Below, one piece after another: positions 585 to 21,588 of a stretch of 37,615 bases of DNA. The translations under genes were made by a program, and so were the position numbers. The notes under the pieces were generated by a model. That model made no database searches. It was not told where the DNA came from and worked only from the letters and a program-made list of their open reading frames with translations. The DNA is from a virus (Duplodnaviria; Heunggongvirae; Uroviricota; Caudoviricetes): IMG/VR virus record IMGVR_UViG_2681813321_000019; one strand, given 5' to 3'. Position 1 is the stretch's first letter. Each line of letters begins with the position of its first letter.

Positions 585-893
585 TTAATATCCTATAGCT
601 AAAAACATAGCGTCTGAGGTGTTTGTATTTACAGCAATATTCATCATGACCTGAGCGGTAAATCCTGTATTGCTTACCCACTCGCATGAGTTAGTTATCT
701 GAACCCATGTTAATTTGGTAGAAAAAACGCCCCAGCAATTAACAGGGAACGGGACAGGGAAAGTCACTGGCACAGAATTTACTACACCGACAGTAGTCAA
801 ATTTGCGAGCGTCCGGCGAAACACCTGAATCTTAAGACCATCAGGACCTGTAAATAACAAATTATCGGTGTACTGCCCGCTTGCTCTTAAACC
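585..893 (-). CDS. Sv' alternative tail-fibre C-terminal cassette (promoterless and silent in this orientation)
   Basis: ORF begins at the crossover site next to pin; the first 16 codons of the ORF-track entry (MMPFARYFCIFINVGL) are read-through antisense to the pin leader. Stop is 1 nt before the tfa' start. Confidence 0.55.
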   Translation of the reverse strand, partial: GLRASGQYTDNLLFTGPDGLKIQVFRRTLANLTTVGVVNSVPVTFPVPFPVNCWGVFSTKLTWVQITNSCEWVSNTGFTAQVMMNIAVNTNTSDAMFLAIGY

Positions 894-907
894 AACGTTT
901 ATGAAAA
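882..907. promoter_or_regulatory. Pin/Hin/Gin-type recombination crossover site (pin-proximal); TGCTCTTAAACC-AA-CGTTTATGAAAA
   Basis: 26-bp imperfect dyad with central AA, resembling hix half-sites (TTCTTGAAAACC / GGTTTTTGATAA); sits about 55 bp upstream of pin. Confidence 0.6.
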
Positions 908-961
908 TGCAGAAATAACGAGCAAATGGCATCATTCCTGCTTTTGTCAGGGAGATCTACC

Positions 962-1516
962 ATGCTTATTGGCTATGTACGTGTGTCAACAAATGACCAG
1001 AACACAGATCTACAACGTAATGCGCTGAACTGTGCAGGATGCGAGCTGATTTTTGAAGACAAGATAAGCGGTACAAAGTCCGAAAGGCCGGGACTGAAAA
1101 AACTGCTCAGGACATTATCGGCAGGCGATACGCTGGTGGTCTGGAAACTGGACCGACTGGGGCGCAGTATGCGGCATCTTGTCGTGCTGGTGGAGGAGTT
1201 GCGCGAACGAGGCATCAACTTTCGTAGTCTGACGGATTCAATTGATACCAGTACCCCAATGGGGCGCTTTTTCTTTCATGTGATGGGGGCCCTGGCTGAA
1301 ATGGAACGAGAACTGATTGTTGAACGAACAAAAGCTGGACTGGAAGCTGCTCGCGCACAGGGACGAATTGGTGGACGTCGTCCCAAACTTACACCAGAAC
1401 AATGGGCACAAGCCGGACGATTAATTGCATCAGGAGTTCCGCGCCAGAAAGTTGCGATTATCTATGATGTTGGCGTATCGACTTTGTATCAGAGGTTTCC
1501 GGCAGGAGATAAATAA
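962..1516 (+). CDS. pin: Serine DNA invertase, Pin/Gin/Hin/Cin family (184 aa from MLIGYVRVSTNDQ)
   Basis: N-terminal MLIGYVRVSTNDQ with catalytic Ser in RVSTNDQ, resolvase core, C-terminal HTH (VAIIYDVGVSTLYQRF); GGGAGA RBS upstream of the ATG at 962. ORF-track start at 926 rejected. Confidence 0.9.
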   Translation: MLIGYVRVSTNDQNTDLQRNALNCAGCELIFEDKISGTKSERPGLKKLLRTLSAGDTLVVWKLDRLGRSMRHLVVLVEELRERGINFRSLTDSIDTSTPMGRFFFHVMGALAEMERELIVERTKAGLEAARAQGRIGGRRPKLTPEQWAQAGRLIASGVPRQKVAIIYDVGVSTLYQRFPAGDK

Positions 1517-1983: not shown

Positions 1984-2011
1984 TGAACGTTAACTTTTTG
2001 AATTTAATCAA

Positions 2012-3439: not shown

Positions 3440-3484
3440 ATGAATATCCTTATTAAATTCTCATTCGGTTACTGTTTATTGTTG

Positions 3485-3520: not shown

Positions 3521-3648
3521 TTTCACACTTGAGAGCCGCGGCTCCTTTGCGTATCCTTTTTTGTCTCCTCACCGTCTGGTCGGTGTCCTGCTGAGACTGC
3601 TAACTTCCTGTTTTTGTTGGTGTTGTCCTTACACCGTCCAATCATGAT

Positions 3649-4011: not shown

Positions 4012-4225
4012 AATGTGTAAAGGTAAGTATACCAGATTTATGAGCGCCATGACCAGCCTCAATGGCGTTATCGTTAAAGATTTAGCACCCATGTAGCCTG
4101 ATTTTTATTCGATTAAGCAATGGGATGGCAACATTTGTGTCGGATGTGATAGCCAATAAGATGTTCATTCGCGCCGCCGGAGAGGGAGGCGCGGTGAGGA
4201 ACTGGTCAATAATTGGAGTGCAGGT

Positions 4226-4708: not shown

Positions 4709-4839
4709 AAGCGTCGTGAATCATCGGTAATCTGAAATCGAAAACACCCCATATCAATCCTGCGGGGGACAAGGCTCTATCTTAGCATGAACCCGATGTT
4801 ACCCAGCGCCGGGATAGCGTTTTTTTTACAGCAGGATAA

Positions 4840-5316
4840 ATGATATTATTTGTTGGATTTTTGTTGATGGAAATTGTTATGCCTCAGATTAGCCGGACCG
4901 CACTGGTACCCTACAGCGCGGAGCAAATGTATCAGTTAGTGAATGACGTTCAGTCTTATCCTCAGTTTTTGCCGGGTTGTACCGGAAGTCGGATTCTGGA
5001 GTCCACTCCTGGGCAGATGACTGCGGCGGTAGATGTCTCTAAGGCTGGGATCAGCAAAACGTTTACTACCCGCAACCAGTTGACCAGTAACCAAAGTATT
5101 CTTATGAATCTGGTGGATGGGCCGTTCAAGAAATTGATTGGTGGATGGAAGTTTACGCCGCTGAGCCAGGAGGCGTGTCGTATCGAGTTTCATCTCGACT
5201 TTGAGTTTACCAATAAGTTGATTGAACTCGCCTTTGGTCGCGTGTTTAAAGAGCTGGCGTCTAATATGGTCCAGGCTTTTACGGTTCGTGCGAAAGAGGT
5301 TTACAGTGCCAGGTAA
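4840..5316 (+). CDS. ratA: Ribosome association toxin RatA (YfjG), 158 aa
   Basis: Translation and divergent position relative to smpB match the enterobacterial yfjG-yfjF arrangement. Confidence 0.85.
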
Positions 5317-5596
5317 AATTGCCGTTGAGGTGGCTTATGCGCTACCTGAGAAGCAGTACCTGCAGCGCGTGACGCTGCAGGAGGGCGCGACGGTTGAAGA
5401 AGCTATTCGCGCCAGTGGCTTGCTGGAATTGCGTACCGATATCGATTTAACTAAAAACAAAGTCGGCATTTACAGCCGTCCGGCAAAACTAAGCGATAGT
5501 GTGCATGATGGCGATCGGGTGGAGATTTATCGCCCTCTCATTGCCGATCCGAAAGAGCTTCGCAGGCAACGAGCAGAAAAATCAGCGAATAAATAA
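5306..5596 (+). CDS. ratB: RatB / YfjF (RnfH-family), about 96 aa, GTG start
   Basis: In-frame GTG at 5306 gives [22 protein letters not shown]...; overlaps the ratA stop. The longer ORF-track start at 5222 lies inside ratA. Confidence 0.75.
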
Positions 5597-5603
5597 CAGA
5601 CAG

Positions 5604-5633
5604 AAAAAAGGTGCTCATTGAGCACCTTTTTTA
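5604..5633. terminator. Bidirectional terminator between ratB and bamE
   Basis: AAAAAAGGTGCTC-ATTG-AGCACCTTTTTT hairpin. Confidence 0.5.
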
Positions 5634-5657
5634 ACGTCTTTGAGAGCAACTTTATTA

Positions 5658-5999
5658 TTAGTTACCACTCAGCGCAGGTTTGTTATCAATATTGGTCAAC
5701 ACACCGCTACTGTTAAAGGTCAGCGTCAGCGTTTGCTGCGTTACACCTTCATGACCTGGTTGCTGGCGGAAGACATAGAACCAGGTATTCGTACCAAATG
5801 GATCGGACATCAGCGGTGTACCCAATGCGTACGCAACTTGTTGTTGCGTCATGCCAACACGTATTTTGGATACGTCGTTAGCGGTCAGATAGTTCCCCTG
5901 GTTGATGTCAGGACGGTAAACCACTCGCTCCAGAGTGGAACAGCCTGCGGTCAACATCAATAGTACTGCTGCTGCAGCAGTCAGCGTTTTACAGCGCAT
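5658..5999 (-). CDS. bamE: Outer membrane assembly lipoprotein BamE (113 aa)
   Basis: Lipoprotein signal ...[20 protein letters not shown]. Confidence 0.9.
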
Positions 6000-6147
6000 A
6001 GTGATTTGATTCCTTTTCGGGCCCGAGCAGTACGTGGCTCATCTGTAATATGCCGATGATAATAGACCTTTCATCACTTTAAAACCTTTTGCTTTCCGGT
6101 CTTACGGCGTTTTGCTGTTTACTCTGACCGTGAAGCAGGAAAAAAGT

Positions 6148-7705
6148 TTACGCTGCAAGCAGTTCTTTCGCATTCGCCAGTGTATTACGTGTGACTTCAC
6201 TGCCACCAAGCAGGCGCGCCAGCTCTTGTAACCGCGCTTTTTTATTCAGGGATTGCATATGCGTTTCTGTCATCGCACCATCGGTTTCTTTGCTGACAAA
6301 ATAGTGTTGATGACCACATCCCGCGACTTGTGGCAGGTGGGTAACACACATCACCTGAGTTGATTCGCCGAGTTGACGCAGCAGTTTGCCGACAACTGCC
6401 GCTGTTGGACCGCTAATCCCTACATCCACTTCATCAAAAATCAGTGCCGGGGTTTCCATTTTACGCGCCGTGATGACCTGGATTGCCAGTGCGATGCGGG
6501 ACAATTCACCACCGGATGCGACTTTGGCAATAGGCTGCATTGGCTGACCTGGGTTGGTGGTTACCCGAAACTCAATACGATCGGCACCGTCAGCGCCCAG
6601 GTGATGCTCGTCAAATTTAACATCGATCGTAAACTGCCCATGCGGCATTGAGAGCGCATGCATACTGTCGGTGATCAGCTGTGCAAGTTCTTCTGCATAT
6701 TGCTGGCGTTGTTGGTGTAATGCGCGCGCGATTTCCAGTGCCTGCTGATGATGTTTCGTTACCGCCAGCGCAAGCGTTTCTTGTGAGTCGGCCTGATCGT
6801 CCAGTTGCTGCTGTTCTTCCAGTAGCGACTGGTAATACTGTGGCAATGCCTCAGGGCTGACGTGATGTTTACGTGCCAGCGAAATCTGTTTTGAGATGCG
6901 CTGTTCAAGTTCAAATAGTCGGTTGGGATCGAGATCCAGACGATCGCAGTAGTGGCGCAGTTCATCGCTGGCTTCAGCAATCTGGATGGTAGCTTCTTCC
7001 AGCATATCAAGTACGCCGGACAGTTTGCTGTCCATGCCAATCAATTCGCTCACCAGTTGTTTAGCCGTGTAAAGCTGACTTTGCAGGTTTGCGTCTTCAC
7101 CGTCGGCCATTAATGCCAATGCATTCTGGCTGGTGGTCAGCAATTGACCGCTGTTCGCCAGACGTTTGTACTCTTCGTCGATTTGTTCAAACTCTCCGGG
7201 CTGCGGATTAAATTCGTTAAGTTCTTTTAATTGGTATTGCAGCAGTTCCGCACGGGCAGCGCGTTCCTGACTTAACTGTTGATGATGCGCGAGGTCACGG
7301 CAGCTTTGATGCCACAACTGATAACGTGCTGTCATTTCCTGGAGTAGAGAGGTTTCATTGGCATAGCCATCAAGCAGGAACTTTTGGTGCTCGGGTTTGG
7401 TGAGTAACTGATGAGCGTGCTGACCATGGATCTGAATCAGCAACTGACCCAGTTCGCGCAGTTGTGACAGAGGAACAGCTGTACCGTTGATGAAACCACG
7501 GGAGCGACCATCGCTGCTGATCACGCGACGAAGCAAACATTCATGCCCGTCTTCAAGCTGGTTTTCTTCCAGCCAGCGCAGAGCCGCTGGCGTATCTTTC
7601 AGAGAAAAACGGGCGCACAGGTCAGCGCGAGCAGCGCCGGTACGCACCATGTCGGCTTCAGCGCGACCACCGAGACAAAGACCGAGGGCATCTATTGCAA
7701 TAGAT
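6148..7705 (-). pseudogene. recN: recN 5'-truncated copy (lacks about the first 35 codons including most of Walker A); ends at breakpoint J1
   Basis: Identical to the 3' 1558 nt of full recN at 13977..15638; identity stops at 7705, where tfa sequence is joined. Confidence 0.85.
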
Positions 7706-7706
7706 A

Positions 7707-8222
7707 GTTAAGGCTGGTTGTTTCTGCCTGCGTCAGTTTACGTCCGGCCTGCAATTTCAGCTGAATCAGACTGATTGAAGCCATTGCAGTATCAATCAGT
7801 GACTGGCGCTGTGCTTCTGCTGCATCTACTGCGGCGCTATGCTGTGCTTCGGTATCCGTCACCCATTTCTCACCATCCCATTTATCGTATGGCGTTAACG
7901 GGGCGATAGTGGTTGTATTATCAGGGTAATCACCCGGAGCTGTGATTTCTTTTGATTCTCCTGTTTCGGTGCTAAAGACGATTTCACCGCGATGGTCTGG
8001 CACATATTCCCATGAGTTAAAATCTACAGATCGGCAGATTGCATAACCAGCTTTGTATGTGCCAGGGGCATCTAAACAGGAATATGCAGGGATACCGACA
8101 CCCACAGCAAGATATTCAGTTGATGTGGAAATATATTCCCGTGTTTCGCCATCATAGTTATAGACGGTAATATTCCCCGCCTTTGTAGCAATAAACTCGC
8201 TATTTAATACAGCGTTATCCAT
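7707..8222 (-). pseudogene. tfa: tfa, 3'-truncated at breakpoint J1 (codons 1..about 171), flipped-state copy
   Basis: Protein identical to Tfa (19607..20209) up to ...TTSLN, then reads into recN antisense (YLLQ*); two synonymous nucleotide differences from the 19607..20209 copy. Confidence 0.65.
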
Positions 8223-8722
8223 TATGCAGCCCTCACGATATAGTTAAATGCAATATTCCGTGGACGGGTTTCATTTATCCCATATGCTGTTGTTCTCTGA
8301 TTCCCGACAAAATATCCATTTGGATTAGAAGATACATAATAATCATCAAAATCAAGTGGGCTATCAGCACCCGGCGTCAGGCTTGCAATATATCCTCTTC
8401 CCATAACTTCTGATGCTGGTATTTCTTTTGTACGATAATCACTAACTCTGAAGAGCTGCCCTTGGTGGGTGTGTGATTCCACTCCTCCATTCTGAAGACT
8501 TAGCAAGGCACGTACAGCATCAATACCACGCCCGTCATCCCAGCCACGAATAAACTCACCACGTAAATCAGGCAATTTATTTGTCGGATAAGCCTTTGCC
8601 AGTTCCGGGTATTCTTCAGCAGAAAAAGCGGCACCGTTGCATTTCAGCCAGCCTGTCGGCGGAGTGGCGGAAGGCCACGGAACAGGCACACCAACAGGTA
8701 ATGCAGAGCCTTCTCCCAAACC
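8222..8722 (-). CDS. Sv tail-fibre C-terminal cassette in the flipped orientation (next to pin, detached from Sc)
   Basis: Sequence [20 protein letters not shown]... identical to the C-terminal 160 aa of S (20209..21000), but its 5' junction carries the pin-side half-site. Confidence 0.6.
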   Translation of the reverse strand, partial: GLGEGSALPVGVPVPWPSATPPTGWLKCNGAAFSAEEYPELAKAYPTNKLPDLRGEFIRGWDDGRGIDAVRALLSLQNGGVESHTHQGQLFRVSDYRTKEIPASEVMGRGYIASLTPGADSPLDFDDYYVSSNPNGYFVGNQRTTAYGINETRPRNIAFNYIVRAA

Positions 8723-8736
8723 AACGTTTATGAAAA
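8711..8736. promoter_or_regulatory. Hybrid crossover site (inversion product); TTCTCCCAAACC-AA-CGTTTATGAAAA
   Basis: Left half is identical to the S-side site (20698..20709); right half is identical to the pin-side site (896..907). Confidence 0.6.
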
Positions 8737-8790
8737 TGCAGAAATAACGAGCAAATGGCATCATTCCTGCTTTTGTCAGGGAGATCTACC

Positions 8791-9345
8791 ATGCTTATTG
8801 GCTATGTACGTGTGTCAACAAATGACCAGAACACAGATCTACAACGTAATGCGCTGAACTGTGCAGGATGCGAGCTGATTTTTGAAGACAAGATAAGCGG
8901 TACAAAGTCCGAAAGGCCGGGACTGAAAAAACTGCTCAGGACATTATCGGCAGGCGATACGCTGGTGGTCTGGAAACTGGACCGACTGGGGCGCAGTATG
9001 CGGCATCTTGTCGTGCTGGTGGAGGAGTTGCGCGAACGAGGCATCAACTTTCGTAGTCTGACGGATTCAATTGATACCAGTACCCCAATGGGGCGCTTTT
9101 TCTTTCATGTGATGGGGGCCCTGGCTGAAATGGAACGAGAACTGATTGTTGAACGAACAAAAGCTGGACTGGAAGCTGCTCGCGCACAGGGACGAATTGG
9201 TGGACGTCGTCCCAAACTTACACCAGAACAATGGGCACAAGCCGGACGATTAATTGCATCAGGAGTTCCGCGCCAGAAAGTTGCGATTATCTATGATGTT
9301 GGCGTATCGACTTTGTATCAGAGGTTTCCGGCAGGAGATAAATAA
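8791..9345 (+). CDS. pin: Serine DNA invertase Pin (copy B)
   Basis: Identical to 962..1516. Confidence 0.9.
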   Translation: MLIGYVRVSTNDQNTDLQRNALNCAGCELIFEDKISGTKSERPGLKKLLRTLSAGDTLVVWKLDRLGRSMRHLVVLVEELRERGINFRSLTDSIDTSTPMGRFFFHVMGALAEMERELIVERTKAGLEAARAQGRIGGRRPKLTPEQWAQAGRLIASGVPRQKVAIIYDVGVSTLYQRFPAGDK

Positions 9346-9543
9346 AGACACAGCTCGTCGAATTCAAGAACGTGTGAGCCAATCTCATGATGATTCATTA
9401 TTTTCACATAGAGTCAATGACAAAAAACGGCTGCAAGGTAAACCACAACGATGGCTTTATTAATTGATAGCGGTTTTGGTACTAAATGATACAAATTAAA
9501 ATGAATATCCTAGTGAATTACAACAATTTCAGGAGGAAATAGT

Positions 9544-9756
9544 ATGCCAAGAAAAACGCTAGAAAATTTGGTAAATGTTGCACGTCAGACTCAGGAAATA
9601 GCGGATAAGAGAAGCCGTTTTTTCGGGTATCTTGAACAGCATGGCTTGAAGAGGAATGAGGATAGTGCTCACCTTTTTGCTATGCATTTACGGTTGCAAC
9701 ACAATGAAAGAGATAATCTTGTCCATGAACTGATGTCCGGATTACATCATAAATAG
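9544..9756 (+). CDS. Hypothetical 70-aa protein (copy B)
   Basis: Identical to 1715..1927. Confidence 0.5.
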   Translation: MPRKTLENLVNVARQTQEIADKRSRFFGYLEQHGLKRNEDSAHLFAMHLRLQHNERDNLVHELMSGLHHK

Positions 9757-9840
9757 TGCATCATTCGAGCAAGAATATTATAAGACAATAAACCAGCCAA
9801 AAACTGGCTGGTTGAACGTTAACTTTTTGAATTTAATCAA

Positions 9841-10185
9841 TTAACTTTGGTGTATGTCTTGGTAAGTCTCATCCGTCAGAGCCAATTTCATGCAAATATC
9901 ATCGTTAAGACTGACAATATCTTCGATCAGTTTATTGATCTCGAAATCGTTAAGTTTTGATACTGTTGCTTGAACTCGCCCCTCATCGCCAGTGGCATCA
10001 AACTTAGTCAGTTCCTTACATAATTCATCGAACCTGCTTTGTAAGGCATTTGGAATATCATCGGCTGTTTTAAGATGCCCAAGGCTAAAAACATACGAAT
10101 TAATCAAGCGTTCTTGAATACTTCCATGGCCCGCAAGAGTAAGTACTGCAGTATGAAATTTTTCATGTGCATACTTTAAGGACAT
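9841..10185 (-). CDS. Hypothetical acidic 114-aa protein (copy B)
   Basis: Identical to 2012..2356. Confidence 0.6.
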   Translation of the reverse strand: MSLKYAHEKFHTAVLTLAGHGSIQERLINSYVFSLGHLKTADDIPNALQSRFDELCKELTKFDATGDEGRVQATVSKLNDFEINKLIEDIVSLNDDICMKLALTDETYQDIHQS

Positions 10186-10236
10186 ATCTGGTCTCCGTGA
10201 CTTATAACCTCAACCGACATAAATGGGGTTAAGTGA

Positions 10237-11268
10237 TTATTCTGAAACAATAGTGTTGAACTGACCTATAGAAACAGCACCCTTTTCAATTACCTCTAAG
10301 TAACTGATTTTAATATGAGAGTTGTTTGACAAAGCGTCAACAATAGCTGTCAACTCATCTTGGGTGATAACATCAGCTGAAGCTTTGATTGTGAAGCATT
10401 CGTCATTAGAGACCCTAACAACGTTAATATTAATATCCTGATTTGTTGGCCCTGTTCTGGTTACACCTTTGATGGAAAATATATCAGTTCGTTCTTTACG
10501 TTCTCTATCTACAGATTGTCGGCTGTTGTAGGTATTTAGGTCTTGTCGTGTTAGTTTCTCATTTCCTAAAGTCACGGTTTCGACAGTAGGATCAGCAGCT
10601 AATTGCTTCACTAAAGCACTTTTACCTGCTTGTCCGTGACTAGTAACTTTATCGCTAATCGCTGATTTCCCATAGATTTTATAATCTAATGTTGCTTCTA
10701 TGGCTTTGTTTATGCCATCGGATGTGGTTTTTGCAATTTCAACCTGCCGATCAGTTGCATGTCTTTCTGTTACGGCATTTTCTGAAATGTAGTGATAACC
10801 ACATGTGCTGGCCGCGCCAACCATTGTGATTATAACAAGCATTTTCTGCCAGCCGTTCAGTCCAGACATAGTATCTCGCAAAAAATCAGTTACTGCGTTG
10901 ATGATCTTGTCAGTGGTGCCTTCCGCATCACTAGAACCTTCGCTAATTTTAAAATTTATATCAAGTCGTTGCTTGTCTTCATTAGTCAAGCGTTGAAGAT
11001 TCTGCGATCCGTATCGTATGGTTGCAAACGCCCGCTGTATCTCCTCGTTGAGCATTGACATACCAAACAACATTGCTGATGTAATTGATGAATGATACCG
11101 CTCTCCTTTTACATTTATGTCTAAGGATGGCCAGCCTGCAAACTTTACGTTAGGGAAAATAAACTCTTTAGAATCAAGCCCCTCTCGGGCTTTCATTTCT
11201 TCCAGAAAGTTTAGAAAATCATCTTCACTACGGATCAGAAAATCAATCGAATCCACAGTAGCTTCCAT
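10237..11268 (-). CDS. Hypothetical 343-aa single-TM protein (copy B)
   Basis: Identical to 2408..3439. Confidence 0.7.
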   Translation of the reverse strand: MEATVDSIDFLIRSEDDFLNFLEEMKAREGLDSKEFIFPNVKFAGWPSLDINVKGERYHSSITSAMLFGMSMLNEEIQRAFATIRYGSQNLQRLTNEDKQRLDINFKISEGSSDAEGTTDKIINAVTDFLRDTMSGLNGWQKMLVIITMVGAASTCGYHYISENAVTERHATDRQVEIAKTTSDGINKAIEATLDYKIYGKSAISDKVTSHGQAGKSALVKQLAADPTVETVTLGNEKLTRQDLNTYNSRQSVDRERKERTDIFSIKGVTRTGPTNQDININVVRVSNDECFTIKASADVITQDELTAIVDALSNNSHIKISYLEVIEKGAVSIGQFNTIVSE

Positions 11269-11477
11269 ATGAATATCCTTATTAAATTCTCATTCGGTTA
11301 CTGTTTATTGTTGACTGATCAATAAAAAAGCCCGCAATTTGCGGGCTTCTTTCACACTTGAGAGCCGCGGCTCCTTTGCGTATCCTTTTTTGTCTCCTCA
11401 CCGTCTGGTCGGTGTCCTGCTGAGACTGCTAACTTCCTGTTTTTGTTGGTGTTGTCCTTACACCGTCCAATCATGAT

Positions 11478-11840
11478 TGGTGGAGCTGGCGGGAGTTGAA
11501 CCCGCGTCCGAAATTCCTACATCCTCGGTACTACATGCTTAGTCAGTCTTTACATTCGCTTGCCAGCTGCGGACGGACACGCCACTAACAAACTAGCCTG
11601 ATTAAGTTTTAACGCTTCAACCCCAGGCAGGGCTTCCACGCGATCTCTTTTGGGTTTGACCTCTCTTGATCCCCGTCCTAAGAGCGGAGGCTAGGGAGAG
11701 AGGGCTCTAAGCAGGTTATTAAGCTGCTAAAGCGTAGTTTTCGTCGTTTGCGACTATTTTTTGCGGCTTTTTACGAGGCCAACCGCCCCTCGGCATGCAC
11801 CTTGGGTTTCGCAAATCCCGTCGAATCCAGAATCAGCCCC
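11478..11840 (-). ncRNA. ssrA: tmRNA (SsrA), copy B
   Basis: Identical to 3649..4011. Confidence 0.95.
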
Positions 11841-12054
11841 AATGTGTAAAGGTAAGTATACCAGATTTATGAGCGCCATGACCAGCCTCAATGGCGTTAT
11901 CGTTAAAGATTTAGCACCCATGTAGCCTGATTTTTATTCGATTAAGCAATGGGATGGCAACATTTGTGTCGGATGTGATAGCCAATAAGATGTTCATTCG
12001 CGCCGCCGGAGAGGGAGGCGCGGTGAGGAACTGGTCAATAATTGGAGTGCAGGT

Positions 12055-12537
12055 TTAACGGTGGGCGTTTTTCATGATACGTGCTTTATCCACCTGCCAT
12101 TCGCGTTCTTTGATATCTGAACGTTTATCGTGCTGTTTTTTACCTTTGGCGACGCCGATTTTCACTTTGCACCAGGCATTTTTCCAGTACAGGGAGAGCG
12201 CCACTACGGTATAGCCTTCTCGATTGACGCGACCGTACAATGAGTCCAGTTCGCGTTGGTTGAGAAGTAACTTGCGGGTACGGGTAGGATCGCACACCAC
12301 ATGCGTGGAGGCCACGGCCATTGGCGTGATGTTAGCGCCAAACAGAAATGCCTCTCCGTCACGCAGAAGGACGTAGCTGTCGCTGATATTGGCTTTTCCT
12401 GCGCGCAGGGATTTAACCTCCCAGCCTTGCAGGGCAAGTCCCGCTTCGAACTCTTCTTCGATAAAGTATTCGTGACGGGCGCGCTTGTTAAGCGCGATGG
12501 TCGCTGAACCAGGTTTATGTGCTTTTTTCTTCGTCAT
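12055..12537 (-). CDS. smpB: SmpB (copy B)
   Basis: Identical to 4226..4708. Confidence 0.95.
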
Positions 12538-12668
12538 AAGCGTCGTGAATCATCGGTAATCTGAAATCGAAAACACCCCATATCAATCCTGCGGGGGACA
12601 AGGCTCTATCTTAGCATGAACCCGATGTTACCCAGCGCCGGGATAGCGTTTTTTTTACAGCAGGATAA

Positions 12669-13145
12669 ATGATATTATTTGTTGGATTTTTGTTGATGGA
12701 AATTGTTATGCCTCAGATTAGCCGGACCGCACTGGTACCCTACAGCGCGGAGCAAATGTATCAGTTAGTGAATGACGTTCAGTCTTATCCTCAGTTTTTG
12801 CCGGGTTGTACCGGAAGTCGGATTCTGGAGTCCACTCCTGGGCAGATGACTGCGGCGGTAGATGTCTCTAAGGCTGGGATCAGCAAAACGTTTACTACCC
12901 GCAACCAGTTGACCAGTAACCAAAGTATTCTTATGAATCTGGTGGATGGGCCGTTCAAGAAATTGATTGGTGGATGGAAGTTTACGCCGCTGAGCCAGGA
13001 GGCGTGTCGTATCGAGTTTCATCTCGACTTTGAGTTTACCAATAAGTTGATTGAACTCGCCTTTGGTCGCGTGTTTAAAGAGCTGGCGTCTAATATGGTC
13101 CAGGCTTTTACGGTTCGTGCGAAAGAGGTTTACAGTGCCAGGTAA
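12669..13145 (+). CDS. ratA: RatA (copy B)
   Basis: Identical to 4840..5316. Confidence 0.85.
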
Positions 13146-13425
13146 AATTGCCGTTGAGGTGGCTTATGCGCTACCTGAGAAGCAGTACCTGCAGCGCGTG
13201 ACGCTGCAGGAGGGCGCGACGGTTGAAGAAGCTATTCGCGCCAGTGGCTTGCTGGAATTGCGTACCGATATCGATTTAACTAAAAACAAAGTCGGCATTT
13301 ACAGCCGTCCGGCAAAACTAAGCGATAGTGTGCATGATGGCGATCGGGTGGAGATTTATCGCCCTCTCATTGCCGATCCGAAAGAGCTTCGCAGGCAACG
13401 AGCAGAAAAATCAGCGAATAAATAA
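13135..13425 (+). CDS. ratB: RatB / YfjF (copy B)
   Basis: Identical to 5306..5596. Confidence 0.75.
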
Positions 13426-13486
13426 CAGACAGAAAAAAGGTGCTCATTGAGCACCTTTTTTAACGTCTTTGAGAGCAACTTTATTA

Positions 13487-13828
13487 TTAGTTACCACTCA
13501 GCGCAGGTTTGTTATCAATATTGGTCAACACACCGCTACTGTTAAAGGTCAGCGTCAGCGTTTGCTGCGTTACACCTTCATGACCTGGTTGCTGGCGGAA
13601 GACATAGAACCAGGTATTCGTACCAAATGGATCGGACATCAGCGGTGTACCCAATGCGTACGCAACTTGTTGTTGCGTCATGCCAACACGTATTTTGGAT
13701 ACGTCGTTAGCGGTCAGATAGTTCCCCTGGTTGATGTCAGGACGGTAAACCACTCGCTCCAGAGTGGAACAGCCTGCGGTCAACATCAATAGTACTGCTG
13801 CTGCAGCAGTCAGCGTTTTACAGCGCAT
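13487..13828 (-). CDS. bamE: BamE (copy B)
   Basis: Identical to 5658..5999. Confidence 0.9.
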
Positions 13829-13976
13829 AGTGATTTGATTCCTTTTCGGGCCCGAGCAGTACGTGGCTCATCTGTAATATGCCGATGATAATAGACCTTT
13901 CATCACTTTAAAACCTTTTGCTTTCCGGTCTTACGGCGTTTTGCTGTTTACTCTGACCGTGAAGCAGGAAAAAAGT

Positions 13977-15638
13977 TTACGCTGCAAGCAGTTCTTTCGC
14001 ATTCGCCAGTGTATTACGTGTGACTTCACTGCCACCAAGCAGGCGCGCCAGCTCTTGTAACCGCGCTTTTTTATTCAGGGATTGCATATGCGTTTCTGTC
14101 ATCGCACCATCGGTTTCTTTGCTGACAAAATAGTGTTGATGACCACATCCCGCGACTTGTGGCAGGTGGGTAACACACATCACCTGAGTTGATTCGCCGA
14201 GTTGACGCAGCAGTTTGCCGACAACTGCCGCTGTTGGACCGCTAATCCCTACATCCACTTCATCAAAAATCAGTGCCGGGGTTTCCATTTTACGCGCCGT
14301 GATGACCTGGATTGCCAGTGCGATGCGGGACAATTCACCACCGGATGCGACTTTGGCAATAGGCTGCATTGGCTGACCTGGGTTGGTGGTTACCCGAAAC
14401 TCAATACGATCGGCACCGTCAGCGCCCAGGTGATGCTCGTCAAATTTAACATCGATCGTAAACTGCCCATGCGGCATTGAGAGCGCATGCATACTGTCGG
14501 TGATCAGCTGTGCAAGTTCTTCTGCATATTGCTGGCGTTGTTGGTGTAATGCGCGCGCGATTTCCAGTGCCTGCTGATGATGTTTCGTTACCGCCAGCGC
14601 AAGCGTTTCTTGTGAGTCGGCCTGATCGTCCAGTTGCTGCTGTTCTTCCAGTAGCGACTGGTAATACTGTGGCAATGCCTCAGGGCTGACGTGATGTTTA
14701 CGTGCCAGCGAAATCTGTTTTGAGATGCGCTGTTCAAGTTCAAATAGTCGGTTGGGATCGAGATCCAGACGATCGCAGTAGTGGCGCAGTTCATCGCTGG
14801 CTTCAGCAATCTGGATGGTAGCTTCTTCCAGCATATCAAGTACGCCGGACAGTTTGCTGTCCATGCCAATCAATTCGCTCACCAGTTGTTTAGCCGTGTA
14901 AAGCTGACTTTGCAGGTTTGCGTCTTCACCGTCGGCCATTAATGCCAATGCATTCTGGCTGGTGGTCAGCAATTGACCGCTGTTCGCCAGACGTTTGTAC
15001 TCTTCGTCGATTTGTTCAAACTCTCCGGGCTGCGGATTAAATTCGTTAAGTTCTTTTAATTGGTATTGCAGCAGTTCCGCACGGGCAGCGCGTTCCTGAC
15101 TTAACTGTTGATGATGCGCGAGGTCACGGCAGCTTTGATGCCACAACTGATAACGTGCTGTCATTTCCTGGAGTAGAGAGGTTTCATTGGCATAGCCATC
15201 AAGCAGGAACTTTTGGTGCTCGGGTTTGGTGAGTAACTGATGAGCGTGCTGACCATGGATCTGAATCAGCAACTGACCCAGTTCGCGCAGTTGTGACAGA
15301 GGAACAGCTGTACCGTTGATGAAACCACGGGAGCGACCATCGCTGCTGATCACGCGACGAAGCAAACATTCATGCCCGTCTTCAAGCTGGTTTTCTTCCA
15401 GCCAGCGCAGAGCCGCTGGCGTATCTTTCAGAGAAAAACGGGCGCACAGGTCAGCGCGAGCAGCGCCGGTACGCACCATGTCGGCTTCAGCGCGACCACC
15501 GAGACAAAGACCGAGGGCATCTATTGCAATAGATTTACCCGCGCCGGTCTCGCCAGTTATTACGGTCATGCCGCTATGAAAATCAATCTCAAGCTCACGA
15601 ACGATAGCAAAGTTGCTGATGGTCAGTTGTGCCAACAT
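13977..15638 (-). CDS. recN: DNA repair protein RecN (553 aa, full length)
   Basis: [20 protein letters not shown]..., Walker [12 protein letters not shown]-like coiled coil. Confidence 0.95.
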
Positions 15639-15648
15639 AGTCGTTTTC

Positions 15649-15706
15649 CTGTATGAAAAACCATTACTGTTATTGTGTACAGTATAAACTGGTTTTATAT
15701 ACAGTA
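15649..15706 (-). promoter_or_regulatory. recN SOS operator region with tandem LexA boxes
   Basis: CTGT-N8-ACAG at 15667..15682 and CTGG-N8-ACAG at 15689..15704, immediately upstream of the recN start. Confidence 0.6.
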
Positions 15707-15723
15707 AAGAGGCTGGCGTAAAA

Positions 15724-16602
15724 TTAGAATAATTTTTTTGACCAGCCGAGCTTGGTGCTTAATGTGTTGAAATAACTGTAATCTTTCGGATGAATCAGAT
15801 TCAGATGGTAATCACAGCGACGAATCAGGACATCTTCACCTTCCTGAATCGGCAGTGCTATCTGGCTGTCGCAACTGATTTCTAGGTCGTTACGGCGATG
15901 CGAAAAACGCAGACGGATCGTGCTGCTGCTGTTTATGACCAGTGGTCGTGCTGACAACGTATGCGGGAACATGGGCACCAGGGTAATCGCATCCAGAGAG
16001 GGGGTCAGAATAGGACCGCCTGCAGAGAGGGAATAGGCGGTGGAGCCTGTTGGCGTCGAAATAATTAGTCCATCAGATCGCTGAGAAAACGCAAAGATCT
16101 CGTCGATATACACTTCGAACTCAATCATATGCGCCACTTTGCCTGGATGAAGCACCACTTCATTTATCGCGGTGCTGATGCGTTTCTGACAATCTTGCTG
16201 ACAGACTTGCGCTTCCAGCAAAAAACGTTTCTCGCTGATGTAGTGGCCTTCCAGCACATCGGCTAACTGTTGCTGGGCGTTATCGGGGTCAAGGTCAGTC
16301 AGGAAACCCAGGTTGCCACGGTTGATTCCAATAACTTTAATATCGTAACGGGCGAGTGTGCGTGCCGCGCCCAGCATATTACCGTCGCCACCAACGACTA
16401 CCGCGAGATCAGCTAGTTGCCCAATCTCCGCGAGCGTGCCAGTTTTCACATTCTTCAGTTGCAGTTCGTGAGCGATTTGTTGCTCAACGATGACCTCGTA
16501 ACCTTTTGTGCACAGCCAGCGGTAGAGCATTTCATGTGTTGTCAGTGCAGTGGGGTGCCGTGGGTGTCCCACAATGCCAATACACTTGAAATGATTATTC
16601 AT
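15724..16602 (-). CDS. nadK: NAD kinase (292 aa)
   Basis: GGDGN motif ([13 protein letters not shown]) and NAD-kinase fold signature; divergent from grpE. Confidence 0.9.
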
Positions 16603-16691
16603 TTTTCCGAGGTCCTTGTTGCGAAGATTGATGACAATGTGAGTGCTTCCCTTGAAACCCTGAAACTGATCCCCATAATAAGCGAAGTTAG

Positions 16692-17370
<679 letters not shown>

Positions 17371-17421
17371 TCACTTAACCCCATTTATGTCGGTTGAGGT
17401 TATAAGTCACGGAGACCAGAT

Positions 17422-17766
17422 ATGTCCTTAAAGTATGCACATGAAAAATTTCATACTGCAGTACTTACTCTTGCGGGCCATGGAAGTATTCAAGAACGCT
17501 TGATTAATTCGTATGTTTTTAGCCTTGGGCATCTTAAAACAGCCGATGATATTCCAAATGCCTTACAAAGCAGGTTCGATGAATTATGTAAGGAACTGAC
17601 TAAGTTTGATGCCACTGGCGATGAGGGGCGAGTTCAAGCAACAGTATCAAAACTTAACGATTTCGAGATCAATAAACTGATCGAAGATATTGTCAGTCTT
17701 AACGATGATATTTGCATGAAATTGGCTCTGACGGATGAGACTTACCAAGACATACACCAAAGTTAA
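17422..17766 (+). CDS. Hypothetical acidic 114-aa protein (copy C)
   Basis: Reverse complement of 2012..2356. Confidence 0.6.
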   Translation: MSLKYAHEKFHTAVLTLAGHGSIQERLINSYVFSLGHLKTADDIPNALQSRFDELCKELTKFDATGDEGRVQATVSKLNDFEINKLIEDIVSLNDDICMKLALTDETYQDIHQS

Positions 17767-17850
17767 TTGATTAAATTCAAAAAGTTAACGTTCAACCAGC
17801 CAGTTTTTGGCTGGTTTATTGTCTTATAATATTCTTGCTCGAATGATGCA

Positions 17851-18063
17851 CTATTTATGATGTAATCCGGACATCAGTTCATGGACAAGATTATCTCTTT
17901 CATTGTGTTGCAACCGTAAATGCATAGCAAAAAGGTGAGCACTATCCTCATTCCTCTTCAAGCCATGCTGTTCAAGATACCCGAAAAAACGGCTTCTCTT
18001 ATCCGCTATTTCCTGAGTCTGACGTGCAACATTTACCAAATTTTCTAGCGTTTTTCTTGGCAT
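17851..18063 (-). CDS. Hypothetical 70-aa protein (copy C)
   Basis: Reverse complement of 1715..1927. Confidence 0.5.
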   Translation of the reverse strand: MPRKTLENLVNVARQTQEIADKRSRFFGYLEQHGLKRNEDSAHLFAMHLRLQHNERDNLVHELMSGLHHK

Positions 18064-18261
18064 ACTATTTCCTCCTGAAATTGTTGTAATTCACTAGGAT
18101 ATTCATTTTAATTTGTATCATTTAGTACCAAAACCGCTATCAATTAATAAAGCCATCGTTGTGGTTTACCTTGCAGCCGTTTTTTGTCATTGACTCTATG
18201 TGAAAATAATGAATCATCATGAGATTGGCTCACACGTTCTTGAATTCGACGAGCTGTGTCT

Positions 18262-18816
18262 TTATTTATCTCCTGCCGGAAACCTCTGATACAAAGTCGA
18301 TACGCCAACATCATAGATAATCGCAACTTTCTGGCGCGGAACTCCTGATGCAATTAATCGTCCGGCTTGTGCCCATTGTTCTGGTGTAAGTTTGGGACGA
18401 CGTCCACCAATTCGTCCCTGTGCGCGAGCAGCTTCCAGTCCAGCTTTTGTTCGTTCAACAATCAGTTCTCGTTCCATTTCAGCCAGGGCCCCCATCACAT
18501 GAAAGAAAAAGCGCCCCATTGGGGTACTGGTATCAATTGAATCCGTCAGACTACGAAAGTTGATGCCTCGTTCGCGCAACTCCTCCACCAGCACGACAAG
18601 ATGCCGCATACTGCGCCCCAGTCGGTCCAGTTTCCAGACCACCAGCGTATCGCCTGCCGATAATGTCCTGAGCAGTTTTTTCAGTCCCGGCCTTTCGGAC
18701 TTTGTACCGCTTATCTTGTCTTCAAAAATCAGCTCGCATCCTGCACAGTTCAGCGCATTACGTTGTAGATCTGTGTTCTGGTCATTTGTTGACACACGTA
18801 CATAGCCAATAAGCAT
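18262..18816 (-). CDS. pin: Serine DNA invertase Pin (copy C)
   Basis: Reverse complement of 962..1516. Confidence 0.9.
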   Translation of the reverse strand: MLIGYVRVSTNDQNTDLQRNALNCAGCELIFEDKISGTKSERPGLKKLLRTLSAGDTLVVWKLDRLGRSMRHLVVLVEELRERGINFRSLTDSIDTSTPMGRFFFHVMGALAEMERELIVERTKAGLEAARAQGRIGGRRPKLTPEQWAQAGRLIASGVPRQKVAIIYDVGVSTLYQRFPAGDK

Positions 18817-18870
18817 GGTAGATCTCCCTGACAAAAGCAGGAATGATGCCATTTGCTCGTTATTTCTGCA

Positions 18871-18896
18871 TTTTCATAAACGTTGGTTTAAGAGCA
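18871..18896. promoter_or_regulatory. Pin-proximal crossover site (copy C)
   Basis: TTTTCATAAACG-TT-GGTTTAAGAGCA, reverse complement of 882..907. Confidence 0.6.
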
Positions 18897-19193
18897 AGCG
18901 GGCAGTACACCGATAATTTGTTATTTACAGGTCCTGATGGTCTTAAGATTCAGGTGTTTCGCCGGACGCTCGCAAATTTGACTACTGTCGGTGTAGTAAA
19001 TTCTGTGCCAGTGACTTTCCCTGTCCCGTTCCCTGTTAATTGCTGGGGCGTTTTTTCTACCAAATTAACATGGGTTCAGATAACTAACTCATGCGAGTGG
19101 GTAAGCAATACAGGATTTACCGCTCAGGTCATGATGAATATTGCTGTAAATACAAACACCTCAGACGCTATGTTTTTAGCTATAGGATATTAA
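18885..19193 (+). CDS. Sv' alternative tail-fibre C-terminal cassette (silent orientation)
   Basis: Reverse complement of 585..893. Confidence 0.55.
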   Translation, partial: GLRASGQYTDNLLFTGPDGLKIQVFRRTLANLTTVGVVNSVPVTFPVPFPVNCWGVFSTKLTWVQITNSCEWVSNTGFTAQVMMNIAVNTNTSDAMFLAIGY

Positions 19194-19194
19194 T

Positions 19195-19635
19195 ATGAAT
19201 CGTTTTGTGTTCAGTCCATCTGAGTCCCGTTTTTATGCCATCGAGTGGCAGGCTGATTATGTTGATAATAATTGTTGGCCACATGATGCCATTAACGTTA
19301 GTGACAGTATTTATTATGAGTTTTCCGGCACTCCCCCTACAGGTAAGCAACTTATAACTTTAAATAACATGCCAGCATGGGGTGATATTCCTCCACCTAC
19401 ACGAGAAGAATTAATTGTCGCTGCTGATGTGGAGAAGCAAAAAAGAATAGATTTAGCCAATGATTACATGAACGGTAAGCAATGGCCTGGTAAAGCAGCT
19501 ATTGGTCGTCTGAAAGGTGGGGAACTGGCACAATATAATTTGTGGCTGGATTATCTGGACGCACTGGAGCTGGTCGATACCGCCAGTGCGCCAGATATTG
19601 AATGGCCTACGCCTCCGGCAGTTCAGGCAAGATGA
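19195..19635 (+). CDS. Alternative tail fibre assembly protein Tfa' (146 aa)
   Basis: Reverse complement of 143..583. Confidence 0.7.
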   Translation: MNRFVFSPSESRFYAIEWQADYVDNNCWPHDAINVSDSIYYEFSGTPPTGKQLITLNNMPAWGDIPPPTREELIVAADVEKQKRIDLANDYMNGKQWPGKAAIGRLKGGELAQYNLWLDYLDALELVDTASAPDIEWPTPPAVQAR

Positions 19636-20209
19636 CATCCGGCGCGGTGCTGGTATCTGTTGCCGTCACCGCGTCAATGTAATCCAGCACAGTGTTAAGG
19701 CTGGTTGTTTCTGCCTGCGTCAGTTTACGTCCGGCCTGCAATTTCAGCTGAATCAGACTGATTGAAGCCATTGCAGTATCAATCAGTGACTGGCGCTGTG
19801 CTTCTGCTGCATCTACTGCGGCGCTATGCTGTGCTTCGGTATCCGTCACCCATTTCTCACCATCCCATTTATCGTATGGCGTTAACGGGGCGATAGTGGT
19901 TGTATTATCAGGGTAATCACCCGGAGCTGTGATTTCTTTTGATTCTCCTGTTTCGGTGCTAAAGACGATTTCACCGCGATGGTCTGGCACATATTCCCAT
20001 GAGTTAAAATCTACAGATCGGCAGATTGCATAACCAGCTTTGTATGTGCCAGGGGCATCTAAACAGGAATATGCAGGGATACCGACACCAACGGCAAGAT
20101 ATTCAGTTGATGTGGAAATATATTCCCGTGTTTCGCCATCATAGTTATAGACGGTAATATTCCCCGCCTTTGTAGCAATAAACTCGCTATTTAATACAGC
20201 GTTATCCAT
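19607..20209 (-). CDS. tfa: Tail fibre assembly protein Tfa (200 aa), expressed orientation
   Basis: Start overlaps the S stop; conserved Tfa C-terminal domain. Confidence 0.8.
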   Translation of the reverse strand: MDNAVLNSEFIATKAGNITVYNYDGETREYISTSTEYLAVGVGIPAYSCLDAPGTYKAGYAICRSVDFNSWEYVPDHRGEIVFSTETGESKEITAPGDYPDNTTTIAPLTPYDKWDGEKWVTDTEAQHSAAVDAAEAQRQSLIDTAMASISLIQLKLQAGRKLTQAETTSLNTVLDYIDAVTATDTSTAPDVILPELPEA

Positions 20210-21000
20210 TATGCAGCCCTCACGATATAGTTAAATGCAATATTCCGTGGACGGGTTTCATTTATCCCATATGCTGTTGTTCTCTGATTCCCGACAAAAT
20301 ATCCATTTGGATTAGAAGATACATAATAATCATCAAAATCAAGTGGGCTATCAGCACCCGGCGTCAGGCTTGCAATATATCCTCTTCCCATAACTTCTGA
20401 TGCTGGTATTTCTTTTGTACGATAATCACTAACTCTGAAGAGCTGCCCTTGGTGGGTGTGTGATTCCACTCCTCCATTCTGAAGACTTAGCAAGGCACGT
20501 ACAGCATCAATACCACGCCCGTCATCCCAGCCACGAATAAACTCACCACGTAAATCAGGCAATTTATTTGTCGGATAAGCCTTTGCCAGTTCCGGGTATT
20601 CTTCAGCAGAAAAAGCGGCACCGTTGCATTTCAGCCAGCCTGTCGGCGGAGTGGCGGAAGGCCACGGAACAGGCACACCAACAGGTAATGCAGAGCCTTC
20701 TCCCAAACCAAGGTTTTCGAGAGCCGTTTTCACCGTGCCGTCCGATTTGATATCGCCAAACGGATTTTTGCGGCTTAACAGCAGCGCACGAAGCGCGGTA
20801 AGCAACTGGTCGTGCCGCCCTTTCTCCAGGCTGGCACCGGAGGCCTCCACAACGCTGCAAAGCTCCTCCTGCAACATGTCAAAGTAGTCATCATCCAGAT
20901 CGGTGGCAGGTGTGCCGGTCTGGGGGTTACCACGGGTAAAACCGTTCTTACCCGCGCCGAACTTATCCTTCTGCGCGGTTTTCGTGTCTATACGATGCAT
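20209..21000 (-). CDS. Tail fibre protein S (263 aa): constant N-terminal part fused at the crossover site to variable part Sv
   Basis: The crossover site (20698..20723) lies inside the ORF at ...[11 protein letters not shown]...; C-terminal HxH motif (GGVESHTHQ) typical of fibre tips; position after the Mu gp48-like gene. Confidence 0.8.
20698..20723. promoter_or_regulatory. S-internal crossover site; TTCTCCCAAACC-AA-GGTTTTCGAGAG
   Basis: 26-bp site with strong resemblance to hixL; inverted partner at 18871..18896. Confidence 0.6.
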
Positions 21001-21003
21001 GAA

Positions 21004-21588
21004 TTACTCCGGATATTTAAAAATTACGTAGGTATGCGACGGGCAGAGTTTGTTAAGCACACACTCGACAACGGTGTCGCCCCAGATACGCAGTGCGGAA
21101 TCACAGGGATCGCCACATGTCATCCAGGTGGTGTTGGTGGCGGCTGGCATGTTGACCTGCCAGTAATACCGCCATTCCGGCGCATTCACAGCGTCAGTGC
21201 AGGCTGATGAGCAGGTGAACGTGCTTTTGTCGTATCGCGTGATGGTAGCGTCTGGTCTGCCCAGGGCAGCAAGCTGTGCAAGGTAAAAATCCTCATTGAT
21301 GCCGCCCGCCAGGTTAACCTTCGCATCCAGTCGTTGCTGACGCTGGCGAAGGGTCTGTGTCCCTGCGGGAATACATTCATCCGGCAGGCCGCACAGACGC
21401 TCCCAGCGGTTTATCAGTTCGGTGGTGGTGCGCGGATCCAGCTCCCGCATCAGGGCATCCGCACGCTGATGAACGCGGGTTAATGACGGTGCCGAACCGG
21501 CAATCGCCGGATCGCTGGCTGACCACGCCGGACCGGGGGGCAACAGTGCAGACAACAGACGGATGTAATCATCGTTTGTCACGTCCAT
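21004..21588 (-). CDS. Mu gp48 / YmfQ-like baseplate-associated tail protein (194 aa)
   Basis: Position between baseplate J and tail fibre; [22 protein letters not shown]... resembles the YmfQ/gp48 family. Confidence 0.6.

Follow-up and report, generated by a model that had tools for sequence, protein, structure and literature searches.

The region at 18262-21000 of viral record IMGVR_UViG_2681813321_000019 raises two questions: whether it encodes a DNA-inversion switch for tail fibres, and how one stretch of 37,615 nucleotides (the whole of the DNA analysed, here called the window) can display that switch flipped as well as unflipped. A preliminary description, made from the letters of the window, had read the region as a Pin-type invertase flipping a segment that carries alternative tail-fibre C-termini and their chaperones. 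Protein domains, the identity of the invertase to Pin, Gin and PinE, recombination sites identical to those of e14, and an inversion between sibling genomes all support this main reading, and the sequence features cited for it were found at their positions. The region is very probably orthologous to the Pin tail-fibre switch of E. coli e14, the 'P segment', and set in a chimeric window of three pieces.

Genes and sites of the invertible segment

The following features were identified, listed by position in the window.

18262..18816, minus strand: pin, encoding a 184-aa serine DNA invertase (Pfam Resolvase and HTH_7; Mu Gin 3UJ3; K-12 PinE)
18732..18795, minus strand: candidate Fis-bound recombinational enhancer at the 5' end of pin (nt 22-85), predicted
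18871..18896, no strand: pin-proximal hix-type site, on the plus strand TTTTCATAAACG-TT-GGTTTAAGAGCA
18885..19193, plus strand: Sv' cassette, alternative tail-fibre C-terminus, Gp53-like_C (PF21882, 1.1e-07)
19195..19635, plus strand: tfa', tail-fibre assembly chaperone paired with Sv' (Caudo_TAP, 1.5e-25)
19607..20209, minus strand: tfa, tail-fibre assembly chaperone paired with Sv, TfaE orthologue (Caudo_TAP, 1.3e-30)
20209..20709, minus strand: Sv, tail-fibre C-terminus expressed in the present orientation, with a Collar domain (Pfam) and an HxH motif
20698..20723, no strand: hix-type site inside S, at about codons 93-101, TTCTCCCAAACC-AA-GGTTTTCGAGAG
20710..21000, minus strand: Sc, constant N-terminal part of the tail-fibre gene, about 98 aa, its N-terminus shared with K-12 StfP

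Two convergent cassette pairs, Sv with tfa and Sv' with tfa', thus lie between inverted hix-type sites, with pin beside them. The pin product matched PF00239 Resolvase (1.5e-51, residues 3-135) and PF02796 HTH_7 (3.6e-13, residues 138-181) and aligned end to end with Mu Gin (solved structure 3UJ3; 1.3e-93, 77.7% identical), including the motif YVRVSTNDQ, within which the catalytic serine lies; its identity to K-12 e14 PinE was 97.8%. The true start of pin is most likely MLIGY at 18816, which gives 184 aa as in annotated pinE, and not the start at 18852 of a 196-aa ORF. A promoter and terminator scan of 18100-21100 returned hits not above those in shuffled sequences, and no clear pin promoter.

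The early part of pin was searched for Fis-binding enhancer sites, as the preliminary description had suggested. Two G-N13-C 15-mers are present at nt 22-36 and 71-85, positions that match those in Mu gin, and between them sits a TAATG element like the one described in the enhancer of Hin (PMC3798978). Synonymous sites, tested for an enhancer lying within pin, showed no excess conservation (P = 0.30). It is positional conservation with gin only that suggests a candidate Fis enhancer here.

The tail-fibre gene S encodes a Collar domain (PF07484, 1.3e-15) at residues 108-155 and contains GGVESHTHQ, and the tfa product is 89.5% identical to K-12 TfaE. In the present orientation Sv' is part of a 116-aa ORF (18843-19193) that starts in the spacer between pin and the hix-type site. 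The two cassettes are unrelated, as had been claimed: one is of Collar type with GGVESHTHQ, the other Gp53-like_C, and the BLASTP match between them covers 15 residues only (E = 0.015). When inversion was simulated, both fusions to Sc remained open, at 263 aa for Sc-Sv and 199 aa for Sc-Sv', the latter 99.5% identical to an annotated 199-aa protein in L005, one of two sibling complete genomes considered below. The frameshift at the Sc-Sv' fusion that had been named beforehand as a refuting outcome is therefore absent.

The host element is an apparently intact prophage, its head of HK97 type and its contractile tail of Mu type, inserted beside ssrA; it adjoins ssrA-smpB-ratA-yfjF-bamE-recN-nadK-grpE, not icd. 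No close full-length match was returned from the phage collection, in which the best record was P2-like (52% coverage). The three genes between pin and ssrA, considered for a defence function, gave no Pfam or PADLOC hit and, for the 343-aa protein only, no NCBIfam hit; their sole match was phrog_6191, a family of unknown function.

Recombination sites and crossover

The in-frame hix-like site in S and its inverted partner upstream of pin, both noted in the preliminary description, were borne out. The S-side site, TTCTCCCAAACCAAGGTTTTCGAGAG, occupies 20698-20723 (plus strand) within the ORF at 20209-21000 (minus strand), and the pin-side site, TGCTCTTAAACCAACGTTTATGAAAA, occupies 18871-18896 (read on the minus strand), with 54 bp between it and the pin ATG at 18816; the pin-side sequence recurs at 882-907. 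Each of the two 26-bp sites consists of imperfect 12-bp inverted half-sites around a shared AA/TT core, and the sites are mutually inverted, with their centres 1,827 bp apart and half-sites that resemble Mu gix. A degenerate hix pattern found four sites in the window, against 0.01 expected by chance. A multiple-inversion system (Min of p15B; shufflons) was rejected, there being only two hix-pattern sites per copy even with three mismatches allowed. The fourth site is a recombinant.

8711..8736, no strand: pin-side recombinant site of the flipped orientation, TTCTCCCAAACCAACGTTTATGAAAA, with the S-side left half and the pin-side right half

Simulated inversion at the central dinucleotides yields this same junction, as predicted. 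The recombinant can be recognised because the inner half-sites differ (TTCTCCC versus TGCTCTT, the latter on the pin side). The earlier statement that breakage at AA/TT is directly visible goes too far: since the parental sites have AAACCAA in common, the crossover is bracketed only to these 7 bp, which include the central AA. Likewise, of the claim that both orientations had been captured, the pin-side flipped junction at 8711-8736 stands, but the reciprocal recombinant, TGCTCTTAAACCAAGGTTTTCGAGAG, was not found in the window, so that the window documents the flipped state on the pin side only.

Pin belongs to the small serine recombinases of the Hin/Gin/Cin/Pin invertase group and, working as Hin and Gin do, would bind the two inverted 26-bp sites, cut them with a 2-bp stagger at the central AA/TT, turn half of the complex through 180 degrees and religate the ends. 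Such an inversion would exchange the C-terminal receptor-binding module fused in frame to Sc, either Sv (Collar type) or Sv' (gp53-like type), and would also change which cognate chaperone gene comes next in the late operon; the presumed outcome is an altered adsorption specificity.

Inversion in other genomes

The sibling complete E. coli genomes Z1323PEC0011 and Z1323PEC0013 (L005/L006) are identical over 6,400 bp except for one inverted block of 1,815 bp, which is exactly reverse-complemented and bounded by the hix-type sites of the window; the reciprocal hybrid site occurs in L005. Among genomes with the prophage at ssrA either orientation was found, the match breaking at window positions 8709-8711. 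The Sv-hix-pin junction was counted in 908 complete genomes, compared with 12 for the Sv'-hix-pin junction. The segment therefore occurs in both orientations with the exchange inside the sites, as seen in the window hybrid at 8711-8736 and in the L005/L006 inversion.

Composition of the window

Self-comparison identified three copies of pin in the window (962-1516, 8791-9345 and 18262-18816). The window thus contains one locus, comprising prophage late genes, pin, ssrA, recN and grpE, as three overlapping pieces in what is most likely an unnatural join, and it is because of this join that the flipped junction is visible at all. The preliminary account of that junction was right about the switch and missed the overlapping pieces. 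The additional features are as follows.

882..1516, plus strand: pin-side hix site (882-907) and pin copy 1 (962-1516), the arrangement of 18262-18896 reverse-complemented
7707..8710, minus strand: second Sv and most of tfa, next to pin copy 2, with the distal end cut at 7707
8791..9345, plus strand: pin copy 2, 100% identical
7705..7707, no strand: joint 1, not at a hix site, made of recN interior, an untemplated A (7706) and tfa interior
16824..16826, no strand: joint 2, not at a hix site, made of grpE at about codon 33, an untemplated A (16825) and the inverted interior of the 343-aa gene

The pieces are 1-7705, 7707-16824 and 16826-37615, the last one reversed; the middle piece would derive from a flipped molecule or record, and the other two from the unflipped state. 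At each joint one extra A is templated by neither side, and there is no hix-like sequence, homology or microhomology. Both recN and grpE are truncated by the joints, and the truncated grpE is the only copy in the window. Neither joint was present in 5,426 complete E. coli genomes; exact matches were also absent from viral contigs (both joints) and from genome and metagenome contigs (joint 1). No record was found of the chimeric 176-aa tfa ORF, and a look-up of the 500-aa truncated RecN returned only unrelated assemblies with a broken recN. One natural draft contig, L007 (GCA_001277575.1), carries the locus once and in collinear order, matches all three pieces at 99.99-100% identity, and lacks the joints.

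The triplication is most likely a chimeric artefact, as judged from the sequence of the joints and of these related genomes. Formation of the joints by Pin acting at pseudo-sites was rejected, no hix-like sequence being present there and loose patterns finding only the four expected sites. An origin in a de Bruijn graph is not preferred, as no k-mer is common to the joined sequences and one additional base separates them.

Origin of the flipped copy

Instead of switching within one clone, the junction at 8711-8736 might reflect another genome or prophage copy, closely related, that is fixed in the opposite orientation and was merged in. The second Sv-tfa copy has two adjacent synonymous tfa differences (8103 and 8106) from the copy at 19694-20697 (there 20090 and 20093). 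These are not random errors, because they match the allele of strain PEC122, and for the same reason the flipped piece may stem from a genome that differs slightly; this junction sequence is, moreover, common in other E. coli (the 908 genomes above). However, rightward of the site the piece agrees with L007, which matches the other two pieces, at 100% identity over 8.1 kb, so that a single lineage is favoured, and a cluster of two changes within 4 bp could reflect gene conversion or polishing against a paralogous tfa. A second genome is accordingly considered unlikely.

It is very unlikely that the triplication arose in vivo, with the pin-ssrA-recN region duplicated directly and also copied in inverted form (for instance through amplification or template switching while a prophage was induced or replicating) and with Pin then flipping the segment in one copy. 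The repeats are indeed 100% identical over 6.8 kb and 2.9 kb, and all three pieces come from one 27-kb locus, not from random places in a 5-Mb genome. Against this, the outward structure is a palindrome without an intact grpE and with a truncated recN, both joints show a single untemplated A and zero microhomology, the joints are missing from the 5,426 complete genomes and from the near-identical L007, and the copy-2 cassette has a different allele. That the threefold structure is real sample DNA, a rearranged or amplified product of the prophage replicating in situ beside ssrA, is judged highly improbable; if it were real, sister switch copies oppositely oriented on one molecule would be a record of Pin acting on each copy separately during induction.

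That the switch is locked, its sites being relics or pin or a site being inactive in this element, is scarcely credible: the pin-side inner half-site TGCTCTT is unlike TTCTCCC of e14, but Pin has its full length and shares 97.8% identity with active PinE, L005 and L006 share this half-site yet differ by an exact inversion, and a hybrid site exists within the window itself.

Comparison with known inversion systems

The preferred reading, an e14-type switch in a chimeric window, was compared with characterized systems. A PinE-type invertase, e14-type sites, a neighbouring ymfQ and the S/tfa cassette array are all present here, and the gene order (ymfQ, S with Sc, cassette and tfa, tfa' and cassette', pin) is that of e14. 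Besides the invertase (97.8%) and TfaE (89.5%), YmfQ is 97.9% identical, and each element has one Collar-type and one gp53-like cassette. The 26-bp sites of K-12 e14 are identical to those of the window, one to the S-side site and the pin-proximal one to the 8711-8736 hybrid. Mehta et al. 2004 also belongs to the literature on the e14 P segment with PinE. The P segment was described in 1985 by Plasterk and van de Putte, as cited in PMC4272514, where its inversion in cultures was measured; e14 inversion has recently been tied to phage defence (PMC12529663), and the e14 repeat reported there, CCTTCTCCCAAACCAA, occurs in the window.

Several differences separate the two elements. The segment measures 1,825 bp here and 1,797 bp in e14; e14 is a cryptic remnant at icd, whereas the window element is an apparently intact prophage late region beside ssrA. 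Both the gp53-like cassette and its chaperone have diverged as alleles (TfaP is 52% identical), and the inner half-sites of the window differ from each other (TTCTCCC versus TGCTCTT), unlike those of e14. Beyond pin lie three genes of unknown function in place of mcrA. StfE2 of e14 has been reported to block T2 adsorption (PMC12529663); in sequence, the 116-aa ORF at 18843-19193 has the same plan, an N-terminus encoded by the spacer, MMPFARYFCIFINVGL, and then a gp53-like domain, but that domain is a diverged allele.

The G segment of Mu with Gin, and the C segment of P1 with Cin, likewise combine a constant Sc with two variable C-termini that have their own chaperones in convergent cassettes, and have one site within S and a second that immediately precedes the invertase gene. 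In addition to the 77.7% identity of Gin, Mu and the window element share half-sites of the TTnTCnnAAACC type. In contrast, the G segment is about 3 kb long, its Sv and Sv' are much longer, the central dinucleotide is TC/GA in gix and AA/TT here, and Mu is a transposing phage whereas the window element has an HK97-type head and terminase. Hin/hix, the flagellar phase switch of Salmonella, shares the recombinase subfamily and 26-bp sites with a 2-bp core. That the hin gene contains a Fis-bound enhancer at its 5' end is well established (see also PMC3798978); the counterpart in the window is a candidate. Hin flips a promoter and has its own gene inside the segment, whereas here the invertase gene lies outside and coding C-termini are exchanged.

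Significance of the locus

The Pin/e14-type DNA-flipping switch is a known system, of which this is an ordinary copy with little new biology. The window itself serves as a caution that chimeric windows can mimic direct evidence of recombination. The module is the same as that of e14 and is carried by a different, apparently intact prophage, which makes this intact e14 relative a handy element for asking what Collar-type and gp53-like cassettes bind.

Gene content of the switch region

The preliminary description placed a Pin-type invertible tail-fibre switch at 18262-21000, and the invertase, the inverted sites and two cassette pairs were all located there. Sc is the constant N-terminal part of tail-fibre gene S, Sv and Sv' are the alternative C-terminal cassettes, and tfa and tfa' are the paired chaperone genes.

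Features of the switch region and related sites
18262-18852, minus: invertase gene pin (Pfam Resolvase and HTH_7)
18843-19193, plus: 116-aa ORF, tail-fibre domain (Pfam Gp53-like_C)
18871-18896, minus: inverted partner site, TGCTCTTAAACC-AA-CGTTTATGAAAA, 54 bp from the pin ATG
19195-19635, plus: 146-aa ORF, tail-fibre assembly chaperone (Pfam Caudo_TAP)
19607-20209, minus: 200-aa ORF, tail-fibre assembly chaperone (Pfam Caudo_TAP)
20209-21000, minus: S gene, 263 aa, Phage Tail Collar domain at residues 108-155 (Pfam)
20698-20723: S-side site, TTCTCCCAAACC-AA-GGTTTTCGAGAG
21004-21588: Mu Gp48/YmfQ (Pfam), neighbour upstream of S
8711-8736: hybrid site, S-side left half plus pin-side right half
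882-907: further hix-type site copy
17422-18063 and 2408-3439 (copies 1715-2356 and 10237-11268): three genes between pin and ssrA (70, 114 and 343 aa)

The likely start of pin is MLIGY at 18816, giving a 184-aa product. The remainder of the window up to 37615 is a late operon encoding a Mu-type contractile tail, HK97-type head, protease, portal, TerL and TerS. The small terminase gene occupies 37108-37611 and the window stops 4 bp upstream of its start codon (37611-37615), which suggests that a gene edge or a prophage caller set the right boundary. The window encodes the Sc-Sv (Collar) gene as an uninterrupted ORF of 263 aa; annotations of related complete genomes with the window-like orientation (L006, 1084-1605; L001, 11248-11769) list it as an incomplete pseudogene.

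In the unflipped state found here, the pin-proximal 'silent' cassette is a complete ORF (18843-19193) with a spacer-encoded N-terminus followed by the gp53-like domain. StfE2, which is reported to block T2 adsorption (PMC12529663), has the same build, so this cassette may not be silent.

No Pfam or PADLOC match was obtained for the 70-, 114- and 343-aa proteins, nor an NCBIfam match for the 343-aa protein, whose sole match was phrog_6191 (no assigned function). At the same position e14 carries mcrA, and the sibling genomes L005 and L006, which differ by an exact inversion, carry a GIY-YIG nuclease and a cytosine methyltransferase; the interval looks like a variable cargo slot.

Recombination sites and inversion products

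A degenerate hix pattern matched the window four times (18871-18896, 20698-20723, 8711-8736 and 882-907) against 0.01 expected. The partner upstream of pin lies one base closer than the 55 bp originally given. Inversion of 18885-20709 in silico produced a hybrid identical to 8711-8736, as had been predicted, and left both fusions open: Sc-Sv of 263 aa (ALENLGL/GEGS) and, with no frameshift, Sc-Sv' of 199 aa (ALENLGL/RASGQ). The latter is 99.5% identical to an annotated protein of a natural genome in the flipped state. Around the core the parental sites have only AAACCAA in common, so the hybrid narrows the crossover to 7 bp. Breakage at the central AA/TT had been called directly visible; the hybrid is consistent with such cleavage, but the crossover is bracketed rather than resolved to AA.

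The invertase family, two inverted sites with identical cores and natural genomes in either state are established, as are two alternative in-frame fusions, both with a chaperone gene of their own downstream. By analogy with Hin and Gin (PMC3798978 and papers cited there), a Fis/enhancer invertasome would assemble, both strands would be cleaved at the core with 2-bp overhangs, and subunits would rotate by 180 degrees. The candidate enhancer consists of two G-N13-C 15-mers (pin nt 22-36 and 71-85) at positions conserved with gin; synonymous-site conservation in this part of pin was not significantly above that in the rest of the gene. BLASTP between Sv and Sv' gave no significant similarity (sole match 15 residues, E = 0.015), in agreement with their description as unrelated. 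Because the two domains differ, inversion would be expected to change receptor specificity. The HxH of the Collar-type cassette may be a metal-binding motif like that of phage T4 gp12.

Orientation in natural genomes

Z1323PEC0011 and Z1323PEC0013, sibling isolates from dogs, have complete genomes that agree exactly across 6,400 bp except for one 1,815-bp block, which is an exact reverse complement delimited by the site cores. The reciprocal hybrid, TGCTCTTAAACCAAGGTTTTCGAGAG, is carried by one of them and is absent within the window; of the two orientations said to be captured there, the flipped state is thus represented by its pin-side junction (8711-8736) alone. Among complete genomes with this prophage adjoining ssrA, some align to the window across the Sv-hix-pin junction, and in others alignment stops at 8709-8711 and a gp53-like gene adjoins pinE.

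Composition of the window

Self-comparison revealed a 2,952-bp perfect inverted repeat (1-2952 and 16826-19777), a 6,817-bp perfect direct repeat (889-7705 and 8718-15534) and a match of 7707-8729 to 19694-20716; pin is present three times and ssrA twice. Beyond pin, the chromosomal DNA carries, after three small or unknown genes, ssrA, smpB, ratA, yfjF, bamE, recN, nadK and grpE. A 29-bp self-complementary sequence between yfjF and bamE (5604-5632 and 13433-13461) probably represents a terminator of the host or a REP-like element. Complete genomes and the natural draft contig GCA_001277575.1, which is 99.99-100% identical to every piece, each have one collinear copy of the pin-ssrA-grpE locus; the window is therefore, judged by its sequence, three overlapping pieces of one locus.

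Pieces of the window
1-7705: piece 1, unflipped
7707-16824: piece 2, flipped
16826-37615: piece 3, reverse-complemented, unflipped

Read as a chromosome, the arrangement would form a palindrome, with an intact grpE missing from the window. Joint 1 (7705/7707) passes from recN into tfa, and joint 2 (16824/16826) from about codon 33 of grpE into the interior of the inverted 343-aa gene. Neither joint has a hix-like sequence or bases shared between its flanks, and neither was spanned among 5,426 complete E. coli genomes; joint 1 was not found in three contig collections (viral, genome and metagenome), nor joint 2 in the viral collection. Each joint has one extra A (7706, 16825) present in neither parent sequence in any genome examined. 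The triplication is most likely an artefact, which would have arisen by fragment ligation during library preparation, concatenation of separate sequences with a one-letter spacer, or an assembly mis-walk. The untemplated A fits the first two better than in vivo recombination. A perfect 16-bp recN palindrome (ATCTATTGCAATAGAT, 7690-7705, repeated at 15519-15534) ends exactly at joint 1, which may be coincidence.

The flipped tfa copy differs from the unflipped one by two adjacent synonymous changes (8103 and 8106 against 20090 and 20093, codons 39-40). Both changes belong to the allele of strain PEC122 and are therefore not random errors; they may stem from a second genome of close kinship, from gene conversion or from polishing against a paralogue.

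Relationship to the e14 P segment

Window Pin is 97.8% identical to K-12 e14 PinE and 77.7% to Mu Gin (solved structure 3UJ3); YmfQ and TfaE are 97.9% and 89.5% identical to their e14 counterparts, and e14 StfP has the same N-terminus as S. Both e14 sites are letter-identical to the S-side and hybrid sites, and the e14 boundary repeat CCTTCTCCCAAACCAA (PMC12529663) occurs in the window. Both the P segment of e14 and its inversion were described long ago (Plasterk & van de Putte 1985; Mehta et al. 2004, as cited in PMC4272514), and both orientations have been measured in clonal K-12 cultures (PMC4272514). Given this near-identity, the element is, on sequence grounds, the switch module of e14 borne by an intact relative.

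The preliminary description and its interpretation both hold. The switch is already known, an orthologue of a textbook system for which pinE and tfaE are annotated in hundreds of genomes, and the sole unusual feature, most likely technical, is that the window is chimeric. If the pieces are independent molecules of one culture, the window does sample both orientations of the switch, in line with the preliminary description.
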